From contig JAUQYZ020000165.1 in assembly GCA_030587475.2 (NCBI GenBank), positions 1 through 30,440 on the forward strand: DNA of 30,440 nt, read 5' to 3'. Source of the DNA: Candidatus Sigynarchaeum calidifontis (lineage in GTDB: Archaea; Asgardarchaeota; Lokiarchaeia; Sigyniarchaeales; Sigyniarchaeaceae). Of the stretch, positions 15,723 through 30,440 are shown piece by piece. The position numbers and the translations under genes are program-made. The notes beneath the pieces were generated by a model. The model was not told the DNA's origin and searched no databases. It saw only the letters and a program-made list of their open reading frames with translations. Numbering within the stretch: position 1 is the first letter of the stretch; every line of letters begins with the position of its first letter.

Positions 15723-16259
15723 ATGGACGACATGACCATGTGCCCAGGCGGCAAGTGCCCGCGGAAGTATGGCTGCATGCGATACATCGGCAAGATCGAG
15801 GGCCGCCAGGACTTCTTCACGGTTCCCCCGTTCAAGGACGCGGAAACTTGCGCGCATTACATTGATGCACGCGTCGAGCTAGCCAGAAATTTCACTCACG
15901 AGCAGATTGCCGCCCGTGCATACGAAATATTCAAGGAAAACAGGACATATCACGACTATTCGTGGTTCCTGGCAGAAGCATTGCTGGTGATCGAGCAAGT
16001 AATTCGTGGAGATCCCGCCGTGATCGCGCCGGATGCATGTCTCGCGGATCCAAACGCTTGGACGTTTAACAAGCGCGCGATCAGCCAGGACATGATACGC
16101 ATCGCCGCGCGGGCAGTCGCCGGGAAACGTGCACCCGTCCAGGACTTGCACTGGTCGCTCGCGGAGGCTTCCTTGCTCCTGCGAGCACTCGAGGAGCGGT
16201 TCCGCGATGTCATCTTGCGGGAGCGCCGAAACCCGACATTGGAGCCAAGCACGCGGTAA
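15723..16259 (+). CDS. Small protein: Cys-rich N-terminal module + two DUF2934-like helical repeats
   Basis: MCPGGKCPRKYGCMRY...C. Repeats EQIAARAYEIF...SWFLAEALL and DMIRIAARAV...HWSLAEASL match the I-x-x-RAY...W-x-x-AE pattern of DUF2934. Confidence 0.68.
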   Translation: MDDMTMCPGGKCPRKYGCMRYIGKIEGRQDFFTVPPFKDAETCAHYIDARVELARNFTHEQIAARAYEIFKENRTYHDYSWFLAEALLVIEQVIRGDPAVIAPDACLADPNAWTFNKRAISQDMIRIAARAVAGKRAPVQDLHWSLAEASLLLRALEERFRDVILRERRNPTLEPSTR

Positions 16260-16377: not shown

Positions 16378-17190
16378 ATGGAGAATGATGTAAAGGAAAG
16401 CAGTTACGAACTCGTGCTCGGCGACGTGCTGGAAACGTTACCCAGATTTCCCGAGAAGTTCAACCTCATCATCGCGGATCCACCATTTGGTCTCGAGTTC
16501 GATAAAAGTAGCCACGAATATGGCGCAGATAATTATATCCTTTACGATGACAAGTTCTCCGGCAATGAATACGAGGAGTTTTCGTTCAAATGGATTTCTA
16601 CTTGTTATGGTGCCCTTAAATCAAACGGGACCATGTACGTGATCAGCGGCTGGACCCGGATAGGTGAAATCCTGAACGCGGTCAAGCGCACGCGGTTCCA
16701 TCTCATCAACCACATCATCTGGCATTTTGGATGGGGCGTGTTCGCCCGCAAGAGATATGTCACAAGCCATTACCACATACTTTTTCTCGCGAAGGACAAG
16801 AATGACTATTGTTTCATCCCGCAATTTTCTAACCCGTACACAAAGCGAAAGGGGGAGAAATATGAAGAGGATGTTTGGTATTGGCCAGAATATAACAGGG
16901 GCAACGACCCTGACCGCGTTTATGGCCATCCATGTCAAATTCCCTTAGCCGTCCTCGAAAAGATCGTGTCAATATCTTCCAAGCCCGGCGACTGGGTGGG
17001 TGATGTCTTTTCCGGGAGTGGCGGGACGATCCTCGCGTGCCGGCGCCTCGGGCGGAACGTGATCGGGTTCGAGAAGAACGAGGCCTACAAGGACGTGATC
17101 AAGCAAAAAGCCAAGTTTGGCGAACGGATCGTCCCGAAAACCGATGTAAAAGCTAAGAAATCGAGCCTCGATGCGTTCATGAAAAGCTAG
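16378..17190 (+). CDS. Beta-class N4C/N6A DNA methyltransferase (MTase A)
   Basis: Catalytic ADPPF precedes IIW, DVW, HPCQIP and the SAM motif DVFSGSGGT, followed by IGFE. Confidence 0.92.
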   Translation: MENDVKESSYELVLGDVLETLPRFPEKFNLIIADPPFGLEFDKSSHEYGADNYILYDDKFSGNEYEEFSFKWISTCYGALKSNGTMYVISGWTRIGEILNAVKRTRFHLINHIIWHFGWGVFARKRYVTSHYHILFLAKDKNDYCFIPQFSNPYTKRKGEKYEEDVWYWPEYNRGNDPDRVYGHPCQIPLAVLEKIVSISSKPGDWVGDVFSGSGGTILACRRLGRNVIGFEKNEAYKDVIKQKAKFGERIVPKTDVKAKKSSLDAFMKS

Positions 17191-17191
17191 A

Positions 17192-18313
17192 TCATTTTTT
17201 TTCCAGGAACTCGTCCAGTGACGAGGTTTTTTTCTTCGAGGCCGAGACCTTGACCTTCTTGAGTCGTTCCTTGACCGCTGGCGATATGATTTTTTCGTCG
17301 AGGAGGCGCGAGAGCACGAGATCCAAGAACTCCTGCTCATCAACGCTTTTTAAACCGAGTGCCCGCGCGGCATCAAGACTTATCGCCAGGACATTCTGCA
17401 AGGCCTTGTATCCCATCGTGACATAGCCATCATCGATCGGCGGGGGGTGCCAAGGCTCCACGACGCGTGCCTTGATCTTGTCGCGGTAATCGGGGTTGAT
17501 CTCGTAACCGATGCCCTTCCGCCTCGTGATCCGGGCGACCTTCAGCGTCGTTCCCGAGCCCACGAACGGGTCGAGCACGGTTTCCCCCTCGACCGTGTGC
17601 ATGCGGATGAGCCGGTAGGGGATGTCCTCGGGAAACGGGGCCCCGTGGCCGTATACGTTCTCGCCCTTGGAATTGATCTTGATGACGGGTTGGATATCGT
17701 CCCAGATGCACCGGACTGCCCAATGTCGCCATTCCTCCTTGGAGAGAAGGTTCTTGTCAAGAACATCCTTGGAGATCTTGCGCGTCTCGCCACGCTTGAC
17801 GAAGGTGTAGACTTGTTCGAACGACGTGTTGGTCGCGATGTTCGTCGGCTTCGGGTAGGAGCCCCACGAGACGTTGTTGACATAGGCCGCCTTGTTCCAG
17901 AATGCCATGCCGCTGAGGAAGCAGTCGTGCTCGCGGAAAAATGCCTGGACATCGTGCATGATGTCGCAGATCACGCGAAAGCCGAACCCGGACTGCTCCG
18001 ACGGGATGGGCAGTGGCTGGATGTTGATCGCGATCTTGCCATTGGGCTGGAGCACCCGGAGGCATTCTTTCCAGACACGGTTGAGCGCGCCGATGTATTC
18101 CTTGTAGGATTGCCCGAAACCGATTTGGTCACCGCCGTAATCACGTACGTTCCAATACGGGGGTGACGTGACGACGAGGGTAACAGATTCCGATTCTACC
18201 GCATCCATGTGTTCCGATGACCCGAAATACACGGTCTGCCCCTCGATCTCCAGCTTGTCCATGGTCTTTGCCTGTCGATGGCTGGTGTGGTTCGCGCTAG
18301 GTATGGTGTCCAT
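17192..18313 (-). CDS. Beta-class DNA methyltransferase, probably N4-cytosine (MTase B)
   Basis: VTSPPYW, HGAPFPEDIPYRLI, VLDPFVGSGTT and IGYEIN. Alternative start at 18262. Confidence 0.92.
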   Translation of the reverse strand: MDTIPSANHTSHRQAKTMDKLEIEGQTVYFGSSEHMDAVESESVTLVVTSPPYWNVRDYGGDQIGFGQSYKEYIGALNRVWKECLRVLQPNGKIAINIQPLPIPSEQSGFGFRVICDIMHDVQAFFREHDCFLSGMAFWNKAAYVNNVSWGSYPKPTNIATNTSFEQVYTFVKRGETRKISKDVLDKNLLSKEEWRHWAVRCIWDDIQPVIKINSKGENVYGHGAPFPEDIPYRLIRMHTVEGETVLDPFVGSGTTLKVARITRRKGIGYEINPDYRDKIKARVVEPWHPPPIDDGYVTMGYKALQNVLAISLDAARALGLKSVDEQEFLDLVLSRLLDEKIISPAVKERLKKVKVSASKKKTSSLDEFLEKK

Positions 18314-19841
18314 TTTGTCGCCGGGGTTCTTGAATCCTTGGAGGAAGACGCCCTCGCGATGGCCGGGATGCTTGCCCCAACCTGGCCTCGATGTCGGGTA
18401 TATATCGCTCGTCGATCTCGAACCCGATCGCCGGCCGGTTCAGCTCCCATGCGGCGGCGATCGTGGTTCCGGACCCGAGGAACGGGTCAACGACGAGCCC
18501 GTCGTGTTTCGATTCCGCCAAGCAGACCTTCACGACTTGCTTCGGATAAATGGCCGGGTGGATCAATCGCGCCCTCTCCCGCGAATTTCCCTTGAGAATG
18601 GGGATGTAATAATCCTGGAGGTACCGGTGACCCTTCGGGTATGAGATCTTGCCGCGAGTAAACCGAAGGATCCACTCGTAATATGGCTTGTACTTGCCCT
18701 TCGCGGGATCGTAGCTGATATCGTATCGCCAGATGATGATGTCCGACAACAACCAAGCCGGAGGCACTAATTTCGCGATCCAGAATGGCGGGATACATTT
18801 TCCACCAGAATAGCTGTTTTTCATGTTGATAAAGGCATCTGCAGAAACGGGATTCATTTTTTCATCGATGACGGCCAGCGTGCGCTTGATCATGCCATGG
18901 TATGCCCCGCGTGGAAGATCGTCCCGGTATCCTTCTTTCCGTGGCGCGACGAGCTTTCCGCTTTTGGGATCCGGCTTGGGCACGTTGAACGGATCGTAGC
19001 CGATGTTGTACGGCGGGCTCGTGACCACGTCATCGATGGACATGTTCACGTGCAATGGTATCCCCGACTGCGCCTCCTGGATGTAATAACGTGCCGGTGG
19101 ATGGTTCCTGGATCCTTGCTTGACAGCGCGCGCGTCTCTTTCGTTTAAATTACCGCTCGTGCTTGTGCCCGAGTCATCCACGTCGATGTGAGCCTCCACA
19201 AACGGATCGGGGTTCCCGGCGGGGACTGCACGGAATCGGCGCTTGAGCTTTCCGACTACGGTTCCGATGCAATCCGCATCCTCACGCGATGACCACGTGT
19301 ACACGGTATCGCCTTCCAATGTGTGGCACTGGATAAGGCGTTGCACCGCTGCCGCCTCGACATGCGTGGCAACGCGAGGGACAGGCATCGGAGCAAGAAG
19401 CGGCCGCTGGAACCCGGCTTTCCCGTCGTGGAGAGGCTCGGAAAAAGACCACACGTTCCCGGGATTCTTGCCGATCGGGTTGTTCCTCGGGTCGGTCTTC
19501 CGGGTATGAGCGATTCGAACCGAATCGATATCATAGGTCGAATCGGGCCAGTTCCAGAAATAAACCAGGCAAAAATTGACGGGCGGATCTTGATCATTGC
19601 TTGCTATCTTCAACAAGATGATATCTCGCAACCGGAAGAATTGATCGACGATCGAAAGATCCACGCCGTGTTGGTAATGGAATTCGGAAAACGCCTTCGA
19701 GTCGAGAGACCCGTCCGGTTTGACAGATGGAATGTAGAATGACGCGACCGTCGCGTGCCGATCCTTGATGATCGACCGCACCTCGCGCGCGTCAGGGTGG
19801 CTACCGGCGGAATCGGGAAGGAGTAACACGAGATCCGTCAT
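18297..19841 (-). CDS. Tandem beta-class DNA methyltransferase: degenerate N-terminal copy + intact C-terminal copy (MTase C)
   Basis: C-half has VVTSPPY, DIIIW, HPAIYP, VVDPFLGSGTT and IGFEID. N-half has LRDII, YDIDSVRI, GKNPGNVW and RLIQCHTLEGDTV but lacks PPY and FxGxG. Start reassigned to ATG 19841. Confidence 0.87.
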   Translation of the reverse strand: MTDLVLLLPDSAGSHPDAREVRSIIKDRHATVASFYIPSVKPDGSLDSKAFSEFHYQHGVDLSIVDQFFRLRDIILLKIASNDQDPPVNFCLVYFWNWPDSTYDIDSVRIAHTRKTDPRNNPIGKNPGNVWSFSEPLHDGKAGFQRPLLAPMPVPRVATHVEAAAVQRLIQCHTLEGDTVYTWSSREDADCIGTVVGKLKRRFRAVPAGNPDPFVEAHIDVDDSGTSTSGNLNERDARAVKQGSRNHPPARYYIQEAQSGIPLHVNMSIDDVVTSPPYNIGYDPFNVPKPDPKSGKLVAPRKEGYRDDLPRGAYHGMIKRTLAVIDEKMNPVSADAFINMKNSYSGGKCIPPFWIAKLVPPAWLLSDIIIWRYDISYDPAKGKYKPYYEWILRFTRGKISYPKGHRYLQDYYIPILKGNSRERARLIHPAIYPKQVVKVCLAESKHDGLVVDPFLGSGTTIAAAWELNRPAIGFEIDERYIPDIEARLGQASRPSRGRLPPRIQEPRRQNGHHT

Positions 19842-19867
19842 TATCGAGATAACCGGATGCCACCGAT

Positions 19868-19954
19868 GTAAAAAAACGCGATGCTTGTTGCGCAGCCAGC
19901 AACATGTTGACGTGGTCAATGTATAAATTCTGCCCACCCGGATCCCTTGACGTG
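19868..19954. promoter_or_regulatory. Divergent promoter between MTases C and D with nested inverted repeats
   Basis: TATAAAT at 19922-19928 (+) and TTTTTTTAC (-) at 19868-19876. Inverted repeats TGTTGC-N7-GCAACA, CAACATGTTG and TTGAC-N3-GTCAA span 19886-19919. Confidence 0.5.
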
Positions 19955-21682
19955 AATAGAAAAACGGCCACCCGCCAGTTTACCGGCGATGCCCGGGTCG
20001 CCGACAAAAACGCCAAAAGGAACCTCGGCCAGTATTATACCGATCCCGCGATCGCCGAGTTCATCGTGTCAAAGCTTGATGCCATTTCGGAAGAAAAGGT
20101 CGTTCTCGATCCTGCATGCGGCGCGGGAGAGTTCCTCTCGAGCTTCTCGAAAGCCCTGGTAAAGGCCATGCGCGAGAGAGGCGCGAGCGAGGCCGACGCT
20201 CGCAAGGCGGTCGCATCGAACGTGTGGGGATTCGACATCGATGCTCTCGCCACGCAGCAATGTACCACGAGGCTCGTGAATGAAGGTTTGGTGGGGTCAG
20301 AGCACGAGCTGCATGTCTACACCATCGATGCGCTAGACGAGCACGTCGACCCGAACACGCGCGTGGTATCCATAATCGATGATTCGATCCACACGAAAAA
20401 ATTTGATTACATCATAGGAAACCCGCCGTTTTTCGTCGTGGACAAGGAGAAAAAGCCGTTTCGCACGATCCTTGGCCTAGCCGAGTACAAGGCAATCGAC
20501 AGCCATAACCTGAACATCGCATCGATGTTCGTGTACAAGTTCATCCACAGGTTAAGGCCAGGGGGGCAGCTCGCCTTCATCCTCCCGCGGTCAGTGCTCC
20601 ACGTTTGCTCGTTCGCGAGCCTCCGGCAGGCAATGTTGAAGGTGAAAATACAATATATATTCGATCTCGGTAAAGCTTTCGAGAATGTTGGCCTTGAACA
20701 ATGTATCATCGTTCTCAAGAATGAGAACAGCGAACACAATGTCGTACATTATGCATTGCTCGGATGCACGAGCAAAGGGATCATCGAGACGGTTTCATAT
20801 GACATTCCACAAGATTATCTCGCAACCACGGCGGATCACGTGTTCGAGGTCTTCAGCGGGGAGAAGCCAGGCCAACCGACGACTTGGGCCGCGTTGAAAG
20901 GCAAGATCGAGAAGCGAGCAGCTGGAAACGACATCATGCAGTATTGCATCGATATTCAGCGCGGCATTGGCTTGCAGCGCGAGGCGAGCAGCACCAGGAT
21001 GGCACCGGGAGATATCGCAGTGATGGGGGGCCGTTCCATTTTTAATTACGGCAAAAAAGGCATCGAAACCTATCGATATCTAGCCGAGAGCCGGATCGTC
21101 AAGGAGAAAATGGCGCGGAAGGAACTAACTAACCTCCGCTCCCCGAAGATCATGCTGCAGAACCTCGTTTCCTCGAAGATCCGCATCGTGGGTTGCTATG
21201 ACGACGAGTTGCAGCGTGCTGGTGATGGGCCCGGGGAAGATCTCTACTTCATGACGTTCGACACGATCACCAACTTGTACCTCGCAGATCAGCGCTATGC
21301 CAGGTTTTTGCTCGCCATTTTGACAAGCGAGCTCGTCACTTGCTTCTTGCGAGACATCGTTTTCGTGCGGGCCAAGCTTACGATCCACCTTGACAAGAAA
21401 TATCTCAAAAAAATTCCCATTCCCCACCCGACCGACTCTCAACTTAGCGAGATAACGAGCGTCGTCAAGGAACTCGAGCGGTTCGCCCTAGATCACCAGA
21501 AAATGGAACCCGTGGGCGAACGCGACGTGCCGAGCTGGGAGGAACCAGGTCATGCGGATTATCCCCAATACGAGCAGCTGATCCGCACGTTGAACAGGCT
21601 CGTGTACAGCCTTTACGGCGTTACCGAAACCGAGCGCCGCTTCATCTCCGGACAGTTGAAGGAATTCGATGATTTCTACTGA
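19952..21682 (+). CDS. Gamma-class N6-adenine DNA methyltransferase, M.TaqI/Eco57I-like with C-terminal TRD (MTase D)
   Basis: GQYYTD, VLDPACGAGEFL, WGFDID, IIGNPPF, AFILP and a TaqI_C-like tail (LLAILTS, YLKKIPIP, LNRLVYSLYG). No nuclease domain. GTG 19952 chosen from TATA spacing. Confidence 0.9.
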   Translation: MNRKTATRQFTGDARVADKNAKRNLGQYYTDPAIAEFIVSKLDAISEEKVVLDPACGAGEFLSSFSKALVKAMRERGASEADARKAVASNVWGFDIDALATQQCTTRLVNEGLVGSEHELHVYTIDALDEHVDPNTRVVSIIDDSIHTKKFDYIIGNPPFFVVDKEKKPFRTILGLAEYKAIDSHNLNIASMFVYKFIHRLRPGGQLAFILPRSVLHVCSFASLRQAMLKVKIQYIFDLGKAFENVGLEQCIIVLKNENSEHNVVHYALLGCTSKGIIETVSYDIPQDYLATTADHVFEVFSGEKPGQPTTWAALKGKIEKRAAGNDIMQYCIDIQRGIGLQREASSTRMAPGDIAVMGGRSIFNYGKKGIETYRYLAESRIVKEKMARKELTNLRSPKIMLQNLVSSKIRIVGCYDDELQRAGDGPGEDLYFMTFDTITNLYLADQRYARFLLAILTSELVTCFLRDIVFVRAKLTIHLDKKYLKKIPIPHPTDSQLSEITSVVKELERFALDHQKMEPVGERDVPSWEEPGHADYPQYEQLIRTLNRLVYSLYGVTETERRFISGQLKEFDDFY

Positions 21683-27619: not shown

Positions 27620-30440
27620 ATGGCAACGCCCTTCGATAATATCGATGCGCTGAAATCCTTTCTACAAAGCAAAGGTGTTACTTGCATCGACGACATATCG
27701 GAACCAGAATTCAAGGGATTGACCGCCCATGTCGATGCTTTTGGAAGCACCGTGCATTTTATCTTCCATGATACCTTTTCCAAGAAAATGAAAAGATACA
27801 TCCCGAATCTCGTGCGCGTGAGTTTTGAGGGAACGTTATACGTTTATAAAGAAAACGACGAGACGGTTTACAAGAAATTTAATATTGCTTCGTCCAGATG
27901 CCTGGCACAGTTCCTTTCGAATTTCACGTATGAAGGAGAACGGCGCTCTGGCCATTTGAGCGCGCTGTATAATTTGGAGGATCTCCGTGCCCGGTACTAT
28001 GTCCAGTATCTGGAAATTGCAGAATCACTGATCTCGCGCCTCGCGAGCAAATTGACTACCACGCGGAAACAAGAAATCGAGGAATTCGTGCACGTCGTTC
28101 TCGAACGTATTATGTTTCTAGCGTTCTTGGAGAAAATCAATGGTTTCCCGCAAGAAGTGCTAATATTTCAGCCTTATTTGCCAGGAAACTATTATGAACT
28201 TGTACTAGTCCCCGTCATGTTCTGGTTCCGCGAACCCCACGTTATCGGCACGAATTTACTCGTGAACGGGAAAGACTATGGAGGGATGTTCAAGCTCCTT
28301 CCTTTCTTGAATACAAGTCTCTTCCGGGAGGTCGCTTTCGAAAGGGTGCACGTCACGCCGTGGATTCAATACGACGCCACGAAAGGAAACCTGAGCGTTC
28401 ACCTCCCCGCCGAAATTATATCGAACGAGGACATGACTGAATTGTTCATACTTGCTGGAAAAAATGGCAGCGCTTCAATACCACGATTTTCATTGGTTGC
28501 CGGGGAAAATTCAACCGAGGAGGGCATTAATCCAGAGATTCTAGGTTACATCTTCGAACAAGGGCTGGATCGGAACGCGTTTGGCGCGTTCTACACGCCC
28601 CGGGGGGTAACCTCTCGAATGGTGAAGACGAGCCTCATGAACTGGCTCTGGCAATGGCTTCCCGCGGACGTGCAATGCAAGCTCGTGGAGCTCTCCAGCA
28701 CCACTTCACGGCGGCTCCAAGCCGATTATCCCCCCGGTGCGGATCTCCAAGCCGCTTGCGCCGAGAAGCTGGAACGCGCGATATACAATCAAGACGAGGT
28801 GCCGAAAGATCTCGCCGACGCCGTGAAACGCGTTGTCTTGGAAAAAATAAAGAATGTAAAGGTTATCGACACGTCATGTGGTTCCGGGGCATTTCTCCTG
28901 GCTATGTTCAACGAGTTAATGGCACTATACATGAATTGTAGCCCGTCCATCCCGAGCAAGAAAGCCATGTACGATCAAGCGATTTCCATTATCGTCAACA
29001 ACTTGTTCGGCGTGGACATCCTAGCCGAGGCCACGGAAAAAGCGATCACGCGACTCTGGCTCGCGGCCACAGAAAAATGTCCCGATATCAAGGATCTCAA
29101 GCCTTTTCAGGACCTAGATTTCAAGATCTACAAGGGAAACGCGATCATCGGATATGCAAACCGCCCCCTTGCCCAGCACACCCTGGCTGTCGCTCCCCTG
29201 GTACACGACGTGCATCCCCCGTTAATGAATAATTGCACCAGGAACATGATGATCGACAAGGATCTCCGTGAATACAATGCCAGGTTCAATGATGCAATCT
29301 ATCAGCTCGTCATCGCCAAGAGAAAAGCGGTTTTCGATTCGATCAAGCAATCATTCATAGATAGCTGTCAAACCGGGGATAATGTAGCTGCGAAACGAAT
29401 TTTATCGAAAATTCGCAGTAACCCGGCAGAGAACATCGGGCATTTGCTGACCCCGGTGGAGATGGATCTGGTTTTCGAACGTGTCAAGATACCGTTCAAG
29501 TTTTCCGACCCGTATGGGCACCTCTCGCCGTTGGAAAAGAAACGGATGCTCGGCATCAAATACAAGAACCACGATGTCGATCCTGTCATCCTCAGGTGTT
29601 TCGAATGGATGAACCCGTTCCATTGGGCATCCTTCTTCGATGCCAACGTGTTCCCGGCGGCCAAGTTCGATATCCTTATCGGCAATCCCCCCTACGAGGG
29701 TGCCCGTAAGGAATCCACGCGTGACGCCGCGATGCCAATCTGGAATCGGCTGCAGCGGCTGTTCATCATCGGCCTTCAAGAACAAGGTATTTACAAGCGG
29801 ATCACGGGCGCGTGGGACTTGTGCATGCCGTTCGTCGAGAGGGCATTCGATCTCGTGAATGAAAGCGGCGTGATTTCATTGCTCTTGCCGAAATCCTTTG
29901 GCACGACCGAGTACACCAACATGCTACGGGAGCACATCTCCAACCAGCACTTGATGATCCAGATAACCAAGTTCGACCCGAAAGTTTCCTTGTTCCACCG
30001 GTTCGACAGCGCGACACGGCGGATGGTGCACGTCGGCATCCAGAACATCATCTTCACCATGCGGAATCGCCCGATCGAGGACAAGCGCCACGCCGTCATC
30101 GAATACTTTACAGATGATCTCGATGACCGGGCACGAGACACACCAGAAATCCGAACCGATTACGAATTGCAATGCCACCCCTTTGCAAAAGACAAGCTAG
30201 ATGGTATACCACTAAAATTCCTGTGCTGTATCGTCAAGGGAATGCAAGTTACCACCAAGGCGGATGATGCAAGGTTCCGGCGAGCTTTCACGCGTGATGA
30301 CATCGTCAGCGCGACCCGGGATGCTATTCACTCGATGCCATTGTATTCAACAAGACATGTTGCACCGTTCAACGTCGTCGGGAATGCATGGCTTGAATGG
30401 GGAACGGACCGGGTACCGGCACGGCTCCACCGGAAGCGGC
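27620..30440 (+). CDS. Large Eco57I/type IIG-like N6-adenine DNA methyltransferase (runs off right edge, >940 aa)
   Basis: Not in the ORF track. Manual translation from ATG 27620 is open to the end: ERIMFLAFLEK, LPFLNTSLF, INPEILGYIFE, GAFYTP, VIDTSCGSGAFL, NNLFGVDI, RLWL, IYKGNA, PFHW, FDILIGNPPY, DLCMPFVERA and WLEWGTDR. Confidence 0.9.
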   Translation, partial: MATPFDNIDALKSFLQSKGVTCIDDISEPEFKGLTAHVDAFGSTVHFIFHDTFSKKMKRYIPNLVRVSFEGTLYVYKENDETVYKKFNIASSRCLAQFLSNFTYEGERRSGHLSALYNLEDLRARYYVQYLEIAESLISRLASKLTTTRKQEIEEFVHVVLERIMFLAFLEKINGFPQEVLIFQPYLPGNYYELVLVPVMFWFREPHVIGTNLLVNGKDYGGMFKLLPFLNTSLFREVAFERVHVTPWIQYDATKGNLSVHLPAEIISNEDMTELFILAGKNGSASIPRFSLVAGENSTEEGINPEILGYIFEQGLDRNAFGAFYTPRGVTSRMVKTSLMNWLWQWLPADVQCKLVELSSTTSRRLQADYPPGADLQAACAEKLERAIYNQDEVPKDLADAVKRVVLEKIKNVKVIDTSCGSGAFLLAMFNELMALYMNCSPSIPSKKAMYDQAISIIVNNLFGVDILAEATEKAITRLWLAATEKCPDIKDLKPFQDLDFKIYKGNAIIGYANRPLAQHTLAVAPLVHDVHPPLMNNCTRNMMIDKDLREYNARFNDAIYQLVIAKRKAVFDSIKQSFIDSCQTGDNVAAKRILSKIRSNPAENIGHLLTPVEMDLVFERVKIPFKFSDPYGHLSPLEKKRMLGIKYKNHDVDPVILRCFEWMNPFHWASFFDANVFPAAKFDILIGNPPYEGARKESTRDAAMPIWNRLQRLFIIGLQEQGIYKRITGAWDLCMPFVERAFDLVNESGVISLLLPKSFGTTEYTNMLREHISNQHLMIQITKFDPKVSLFHRFDSATRRMVHVGIQNIIFTMRNRPIEDKRHAVIEYFTDDLDDRARDTPEIRTDYELQCHPFAKDKLDGIPLKFLCCIVKGMQVTTKADDARFRRAFTRDDIVSATRDAIHSMPLYSTRHVAPFNVVGNAWLEWGTDRVPARLHRKR

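Follow-up and report, generated by a model that had tools for sequence, protein, structure and literature searches.

Two convergent DNA methyltransferase genes of Candidatus Sigynarchaeum calidifontis encode PIP-like C-terminal tails that may dock on PCNA

Eukaryotic DNMT1 is a C5-cytosine methyltransferase that has its PIP motif in the N-terminal region and depends on UHRF1-based reading of hemimethylated DNA. A PCNA-binding motif recruits it, and newly replicated DNA should be its favoured substrate (Iida et al. 2002, as cited in PMC9690074). How the methyltransferases of prokaryotes get to new DNA is commonly ascribed to diffusion, with coupling to the clamp regarded as a peculiarity of eukaryotic DNMT1. 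Archaeal PCNA clients, namely FEN1, PolB, PolD DP2 (cPIP), RNase HII, NreA and NucS, carry an L-x-x-F-hydrophobic motif at the extreme C-terminus behind a flexible linker (PMC4929162). The nearest hint of a methyltransferase among them is a putative adenine methyltransferase of P. abyssi that co-purifies with NucS and PCNA (PMC4929162). Bacterial clients of the β-clamp follow the consensus QL(S/D)LF (PMC9690074), and no DNA methyltransferases were found listed among them in the limited library available to us. Likewise, no description of a PIP- or β-clamp-tailed prokaryotic DNA methyltransferase was found in the literature, where our coverage of subscription journals is thin. Solitary amino-methyltransferases are represented by CcrM, M.BceJIV and persistent archaeal m4C/m6A orphans (PMC10609329). 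In Asgard archaea, methylation has been little studied (PMC11529989).

We analysed a stretch of 30,440 nucleotides, here called the window, of Candidatus Sigynarchaeum calidifontis (contig JAUQYZ020000165.1 of assembly GCA_030587475.2). Two DNA methyltransferase genes, A and B, meet tail to tail in it. MTase A is encoded at 16378–17190 on the forward strand (270 aa, ending KAKKSSLDAFMKS, stop codon TAG at 17188–17190). The open reading frame of MTase B occupies 17192–18313 on the reverse strand (ending KKKTSSLDEFLEKK, stop codon at 17192–17194). Its start is probably at 18262, because the closest homologues are about 356 aa long and begin at that Met; the gene would then span 17192–18262 on the reverse strand and encode 356 aa. 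A single base, 17191, separates the two stop codons. The layout and endings given in the original prediction were reproduced from the sequence, and the use of different synonymous codons for the motif in A and B was confirmed. An origin of the shared motif as a DNA inverted repeat was rejected, as there is no inverted repeat of at least 10 bp within 17050–17350. Recent duplication was rejected as well, since A and B can be aligned over just 67 aa at 34% identity. Tail-to-tail adjacency was seen only in Sigynarchaeum-like genomes; elsewhere the two genes lie on separate contigs or, in a closed chromosome, 1.3 Mb apart. A conserved A–B pair was therefore rejected, and the adjacency is a local arrangement and no two-part system.

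Both proteins belong to Pfam family PF01555, A with an E value of 6.5e-45 (N6_N4_Mtase domain at residues 29–242) and B with 1.7e-37 (residues 44–280 of 373). The catalytic motif is N-terminal to the SAM-binding motif in both (DPPF before FSGSG in A, SPPY before FVGSG in B), which is the beta-class order of (D/S)PP(Y/F) before FxGxG. Judged by these sequence features, A is a beta-class N6-adenine/N4-cytosine DNA methyltransferase, and B, with its TSPPY motif, is a beta-class amino-methyltransferase that probably makes m4C. The fold of A is like that of CcrM and M.BceJIV, the closest structure to B is TTHA0409, and the closest named homologue of each protein is one of Ca. Sigynarchaeum springense with 92% identity. 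With CcrM, M.BceJIV and the persistent archaeal orphans (PMC10609329), A and B share the fold, the motif order, the solitary state and persistence in some families. They differ from CcrM-type orphans in a score below the CcrM equivalog cut-off (96.8 versus 830 bits) and in that no clamp motif was found reported for those enzymes. Neither protein has a C5-cytosine methyltransferase fold. As small beta-class amino-methyltransferases with C-terminal tails A and B are no relatives of DNMT1, and the likeness that had been drawn between them would hold for recruitment only, not for ancestry.

The basic linker and tail of A (17149–17187, forward strand) include the PIP-like octamer KSSLDAFM (17158–17181, forward strand) with L264, F267 and M268. 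The basic tail of B (17195–17236, reverse strand) includes the octamer TSSLDEFL (17204–17227, reverse strand). Both tails lie past the N6_N4_Mtase domain, i.e. beyond the catalytic fold as had been claimed. In the AlphaFold2 models residues 257–270 of A have pLDDT below 50 with a one-turn helix at 264–268, and in B a helix at residues 349–354 of 356 follows a linker. The hydrophobic residue at position 4 and the aromatic residue at position 7 are Leu and Phe in both tails, and both have flexible terminal placement outside the fold and lysine-rich flanks. The canonical Gln at position 1 is replaced by Lys in A and by Thr in B. Its absence rules out the canonical form only, since Gln is missing in 34% of validated PIP motifs; basic flanks raise affinity (PMC6881253). 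A second aromatic residue at position 8 is likewise lacking (Met in A, Leu in B), and Leu or Ile at this position is frequent in FEN1 and NreA tails of the host lineage too. The cPIP of DP2 is Q-less like the tails of A and B, and the motif is also present on FEN1, NreA, PolB and DP2 of the host. What differs from the described archaeal PIP clients is the carrier, which here is a DNA methyltransferase.

How common such an ending is in the host proteome was addressed with a profile. A loose PIP regular expression had been uninformative (54 matches versus 37 expected) and an independently trained profile was used instead, built on 59 FEN1 and NreA tails that all come from other genomes of the order. 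It was scored on 4,215 non-overlapping host ORF ends; note that the ranks are approximate because the ORF calling is crude. The top nine are NreA, a DUF72 protein, FEN1, MTase B (rank 4), two further methyltransferases (C150 and C266), a RadA-like protein, PolD DP2 and MTase A (rank 9). Twelve ORFs reach at least 12 bits, as compared to 1.8 expected; these are 4 of the 24 methyltransferases versus 8 of the 4191 other ORFs (Fisher p 4e-7). By this ranking, SSLDxF-like ends are not equally common among unrelated host proteins. Indeed, none of the observations that the original prediction had named as speaking against it was made where they could be sought. Host PolB, with the Q-less ending KKLDSFF, is at rank 18. 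Endings of the form QxxLF are found in four host ORFs only, and three of these are RNase HII and two further methyltransferases, so the PIP and β-clamp forms overlap.

Several other host proteins deserve mention in this connection. Terminal or near-terminal clamp-like motifs were seen in six host methyltransferases besides A and B (C150:4405–5265, C266:3466–4536, C135:4298–5104, C234:8299–10008, C18:6007–6975 and C213:18970–21714; motifs KSLDEFF, APLDEFI, QKKLF, QSSLF, TLLDFS and QTTLYSF). The DUF72 protein (C222:9488–10381, tail QKTLGDFL) has one of the strongest PIP-like tails, and the RadA-like protein (C140:66937–67833, tail RTLDDF) is encoded beside a second PolB; both are candidate PCNA clients. 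NucS was not found in the host genome, which is 89% complete, and the tail of the RFC large subunit was not located there; one open frame of 332 codons is probably the small subunit.

The tails are conserved among orthologues. For A, 120 homologues were collected, 97 of which continue for 10 residues or more beyond the last conserved anchor. The box was counted as hydrophobic-x-x-aromatic within the last 14 residues, and 1000 shuffles served as the null. It is present in 83 of the 97 tailed A homologues (shuffle mean 5.0, maximum 13) and in 42 of the 67 tailed B homologues (mean 3.0, maximum 9), far above the shuffles in both cases; an alignment of orthologues was among the checks that the original prediction had proposed. 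When 80 A tails are aligned on the box, Gln occupies position 1 in 37, Leu position 4 in 78 and Leu position 8 in 61, position 7 being Phe or Tyr, and thus many A orthologues have a near-canonical PIP. Gln at position 1 is found in 4 of 52 B orthologues. In close relatives LDAFM is fixed with synonymous changes and the linker varies. About a third of the A homologues and over half of those of B have no scoring tail, so the tail is dispensable. According to a quick version of the tail tree, clades without the tail include a Thermoplasmata-type group and one Promethearchaeota group. On the strength of these alignments, the motif of A and B is shared beyond chance.

A scan of named genomes recovered orthologues of A together with a sister family, the latter at 36–41% identity. 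In bacterial members (WOR-3, Elusimicrobia, Bacteroidota) the catalytic domain ends in QISLF, QIDLF, QTSLF, QLNLF or ELSLF; thus, bacterial relatives of A carry a motif of the β-clamp client type at the position of the archaeal tail. The pattern Q/E-x(1-4)-LF is present in 19 of 28 bacterial and 0 of 31 Asgard A copies, with the reservation that inspection of the tails preceded the definition of the patterns, that the sequences are related and that the bacterial family shares only 39% identity with A. The PIP form, also defined after the tails had been inspected, is found in 27 of the 31 Asgard copies. The host methyltransferase on C266, which ends APLDEFI, is 50% identical to the bacterial sister family. 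These comparisons suggest that the form of the tail follows the clamp of the host, PIP in Asgard archaea and the β-clamp motif in bacteria. Immediately downstream of several bacterial sister methyltransferases there is a 205-aa gene; its closest named match in the atlas is the ThaI restriction family, and therefore a clamp tail is no proof of independence from restriction–modification (RM). Bacterial beta-class methyltransferases with β-clamp endings, several of them beside a ThaI-like nuclease, are located at L225:3001–3699, L231:2890–4306 and L262–L288. The phage collection yielded distant methyltransferases only.

In relatives of the host the tail of A has been exchanged. In assembly GCA_040960625.1 (L177) about 3.4 kb of lower GC content (0.33–0.46 versus about 0.6) lies between A and B. 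The insert (L177:930–4584) gives A a new end, KKTDLTTFL..., and its insertion point corresponds to a position near 17086 of the window, so that the displaced 3' segment of A is 17086–17187 on the forward strand, with an approximate left border. The protein encoded by the insert has 1052 aa and combines repeats with a Zn ribbon and a Vsr-like nuclease, the nearest atlas clusters of which are DUF4379/DUF723/NUMOD1 phage proteins. The nuclease ORF reads on, without a change of frame, through the 3' end displaced from A and ends TVGLDAFMGK, with its stop codon one base from B, as is the case for A in the window. Genome G281 (C167/C44; L003, L033) repeats this arrangement with a nuclease of reduced length and the displaced end RSGLDAFMKG, on two contigs joined by a 6-base overlap, which is weak evidence alone. 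In a third assembly (L178) the replacement tail is present and the nuclease ORF begins as in the others. L-x-x-F is preserved in the replacement tails DLTTFL and DLTSFL and in the displaced GLDAFM, seen twice; changes within it are synonymous, and the flanks drift; on the profile the replacement tails score low, 2.3–5.3 bits.

From its sequence the insert would be a homing-endonuclease-like element. With homing endonucleases of the Vsr-like (EDxHD) kind, for example I-Bth0305I (PMC3239194), it shares repeat arrays, a Zn ribbon, a Vsr-like nuclease and sporadic multi-copy occurrence. It differs from them in replacing the 3' end of the host gene and in capturing the displaced PIP-like tail in its own ORF. 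A search for full-length homologues of the inserted nuclease returned only itself; a profile-free search of representatives turned up a large family. The distribution of this nuclease family is sporadic: of the 151 genomes examined from the order, 44 have it. Out of 24 other loci inspected (L290–L313), 12 have a PIP-like box of their own at the end of the nuclease, e.g. QKKMDNYL or QKNLDDYL. Capture of tails by an invading nuclease is a route by which docking modules can spread.

The PIP-box-like reading of the tails in the original prediction is supported by their conservation, by the enrichment of such endings on DNA-processing proteins and by the swap for a β-clamp motif in bacterial relatives; of the canonical form, the Gln and the second aromatic residue are lacking. 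The host has one PCNA gene (C143:18998–19915), and the C-terminus of the protein is a stretch of 38 residues, 19 of them acidic and none basic. This PCNA is only about 30–36% identical to that of other families in the order and its acidic tail is longer than theirs. A complex model of PCNA (residues 1–272) with residues 238–270 of A scored 0.36 versus 0.02 for the best control, with contact agreement between runs of at least 66% and partner pLDDT of at least 46. In the calibration, the mark used is passed by 58 out of 80 solved complexes and by 2 out of 110 mismatches; at values up to 0.60 there are just 7 of these solved complexes, but both mismatches. As PIP and PCNA are a textbook pair, the pass may also reflect likeness to solved structures, and the structure prediction proposed for the tail peptides lends weak support for A. 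The Q-less precedent that the original prediction had named for DP2 is right: the cPIP of P. abyssi DP2 was crystallised in the PCNA pocket (10.1101/2020.01.29.925263). This motif binds primase better than PCNA, at 4 µM as against 49 µM for the peptide alone with PCNA (10.1101/2020.01.29.925263; PMC8096248). With no Gln and one aromatic residue only, the affinity of the A and B tails may be low.

We consider it fairly likely that A and B are clamp-tethered orphan beta-class amino-methyltransferases that re-methylate new DNA from PCNA. The docking peptide for the sliding clamp would in each case be a Q-less PIP box, flanked by basic residues and placed on a flexible tail. L-x-x-F-(L/M) may form a short helix that plugs the PCNA pocket, and the lysines, facing the acidic PCNA surface and the 38-residue acidic tail, could assist docking. 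The enzymes would thus gather on PCNA that stays behind on freshly synthesised or repaired DNA, and short sites would quickly regain full methylation. Any preference for new DNA would be a matter of localisation and would not come from a hemimethyl reader of the DNMT1 type. The tail itself may be an optional portable module, gained and lost by many DNA-acting enzymes, both orphan and restriction-linked. If this is true, clamp-matched tails (PIP in one case, β-clamp motif in the other) add DNA methyltransferases to the prokaryotic clamp interactome.

Two other explanations of the tail itself can be compared with PCNA docking. The shared ending could have arisen by chance, or as a side effect of terminators that overlap where the two genes converge. 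The terminal Lys codons of B do form the T8 tract directly behind the A stop codon, and there is a terminator-like stem at 17210–17225. Against this, the motif is kept with synonymous variation in orthologues that are not adjacent, and terminator-like sites are near shuffle levels (10 versus 6.9 ± 2.6). Profile ranking, bacterial comparison and the shuffle test had already countered this explanation; it is largely refuted and we regard it as very improbable. It is somewhat less improbable, though still far from likely, that the tail binds another replisome hub, e.g. primase (PriL), instead of or besides PCNA. The preference of the DP2 cPIP for primase (4 versus 49 µM) makes this worth considering, the tails of A and B being equally Q-less. 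However, the canonical Gln is restored in 37 of 80 A orthologues, and the β-clamp motif of bacterial relatives points to the clamp.

The purpose of the methylation is a different matter. The original prediction had seen in A and B maintenance methylases rather than RM partners. In a strong version of this reading they would be dedicated, DNMT1-like enzymes with preference for hemimethylated DNA, unrelated to RM and part of a heritable epigenetic system. No nuclease is recognised beside A and B here or among the annotated recurring neighbours elsewhere, which makes them orphans. According to the rule of Anton and Roberts, an orphan methyltransferase is persistent when present in at least 75% of a taxon with at least five genomes (PMC10609329). 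One family of 22 genomes reaches this level (A in 19, B in 18), so that A and B are locally persistent in the sense of that rule; the host family, where both genes occur in 4 of 4 genomes, has four members, and elsewhere they are rare. B is found in 10 of 14 genomes of another family. In P. syntrophicum-type Lokiarchaeota there are 11 Type II methyltransferases and no Type II restriction endonuclease (PMC10609329), and four-base palindromes are little avoided in the host (O/E 0.89–1.27), both of which fit a maintenance role. Yet phylum-wide the genes are patchy and below that level: A is present in 35 of 400 Asgard genomes and B, counted as clear orthologues, in 37 of 400, with the provision that these metagenome-assembled genomes are incomplete; a further 18 weaker matches to B, at about 43%, fall into a separate group. 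A hemimethyl-reading domain was seen in neither A nor B, and the fold is that of an amino-methyltransferase, not C5. Moreover, clamp tails are found on nuclease-linked bacterial methyltransferases and on mobile Vsr-like nucleases, and the tail is therefore no marker of an epigenetic role. Dedicated maintenance methylation is unlikely in our opinion. The claim that A and B are not RM partners is unsupported given the clamp tails on bacterial sister enzymes beside a ThaI-like nuclease. The same applies to the claim of an archaeal epigenetic system, as the genes are patchy, many orthologues are tail-less and the pair occurs only in Sigynarchaeum-like genomes.

Alternatively, A and B may shield the chromosome from restriction nucleases that are unlinked, phage-borne or mobile, the tether only shortening the unprotected period after replication. 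This is compatible with PCNA docking as the best explanation of the tail; the difference is one of purpose. The frequent linkage of the bacterial sister family of A to a ThaI-like restriction endonuclease, the presence of about two dozen amino-methyltransferases and IIG-like genes in the host genome, and the clustering of methyltransferases here and in another Asgard family speak for protection. On the other hand, no ThaI-family nuclease was found in the 89% complete host genome, and the neighbourhoods within families are stable and of housekeeping type. Such a protective role is possible, and less doubtful than maintenance, but we would not call it probable. A broader proposal would start from docking on PCNA: several Asgard methyltransferases may ride PCNA and copy heritable m4C/m6A patterns behind the fork, as a convergent functional forerunner of DNMT1 maintenance, clamp tethering being a general unrecognised trait of prokaryotes and the tails being hijacked by mobile nucleases. 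We find this proposal, taken as a whole, doubtful. Palindrome avoidance gave no usable signal for the target site. The most avoided palindromes in the host are GGWCC (O/E 0.54) and TACGTA (0.55), and TAGCTA is enriched (1.59).

Regarding the surroundings of the pair, A and B are part of a four-methyltransferase cluster in the window. MTase C (SPPY; 18297–19937, reverse strand) has no PIP-like tail (profile rank 3041), and the tail of MTase D (19904–21682, forward strand; gamma-class, NPPF, TaqI-like C-terminal domain) is weak at most (rank 96, 5.3 bits). Of the flanking ORFs scanned, none was recognised as a restriction nuclease, so the orphan label given to A and B holds locally. A Type IIG-like restriction–methylase gene lies about 9 kb away (27620–30440) and runs off the contig end. 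In other genomes A adjoins housekeeping genes or further methyltransferases, and B has an endonuclease IV-like gene and a flavin reductase next to it; these recurring neighbours include no recognised restriction nuclease. In another Asgard family (L015–L031) A stands between two different methyltransferases, DUF1156/HmaB-like and TaqI-like, so orphan methyltransferases cluster repeatedly with varying partners. Behind the A stop codon, at 17195–17233, there is a T8 tract followed by a small stem-loop and T7, possibly an A terminator inside B. Upstream of A, there is an ORF of 178 aa (15723–16259) that begins Cys-rich and contains the segment AYEIF...W.LAEA in two similar copies; it has no Pfam or PADLOC match and is retained at this place in S. 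springense. MTase C, compared with its counterparts in relatives (among them L172:9389–10929 and L174:4320–5861), is a single ORF in the window and also in one assembly of S. springense type (513 aa), and is split into two genes of 231 and 247 aa in two other assemblies.
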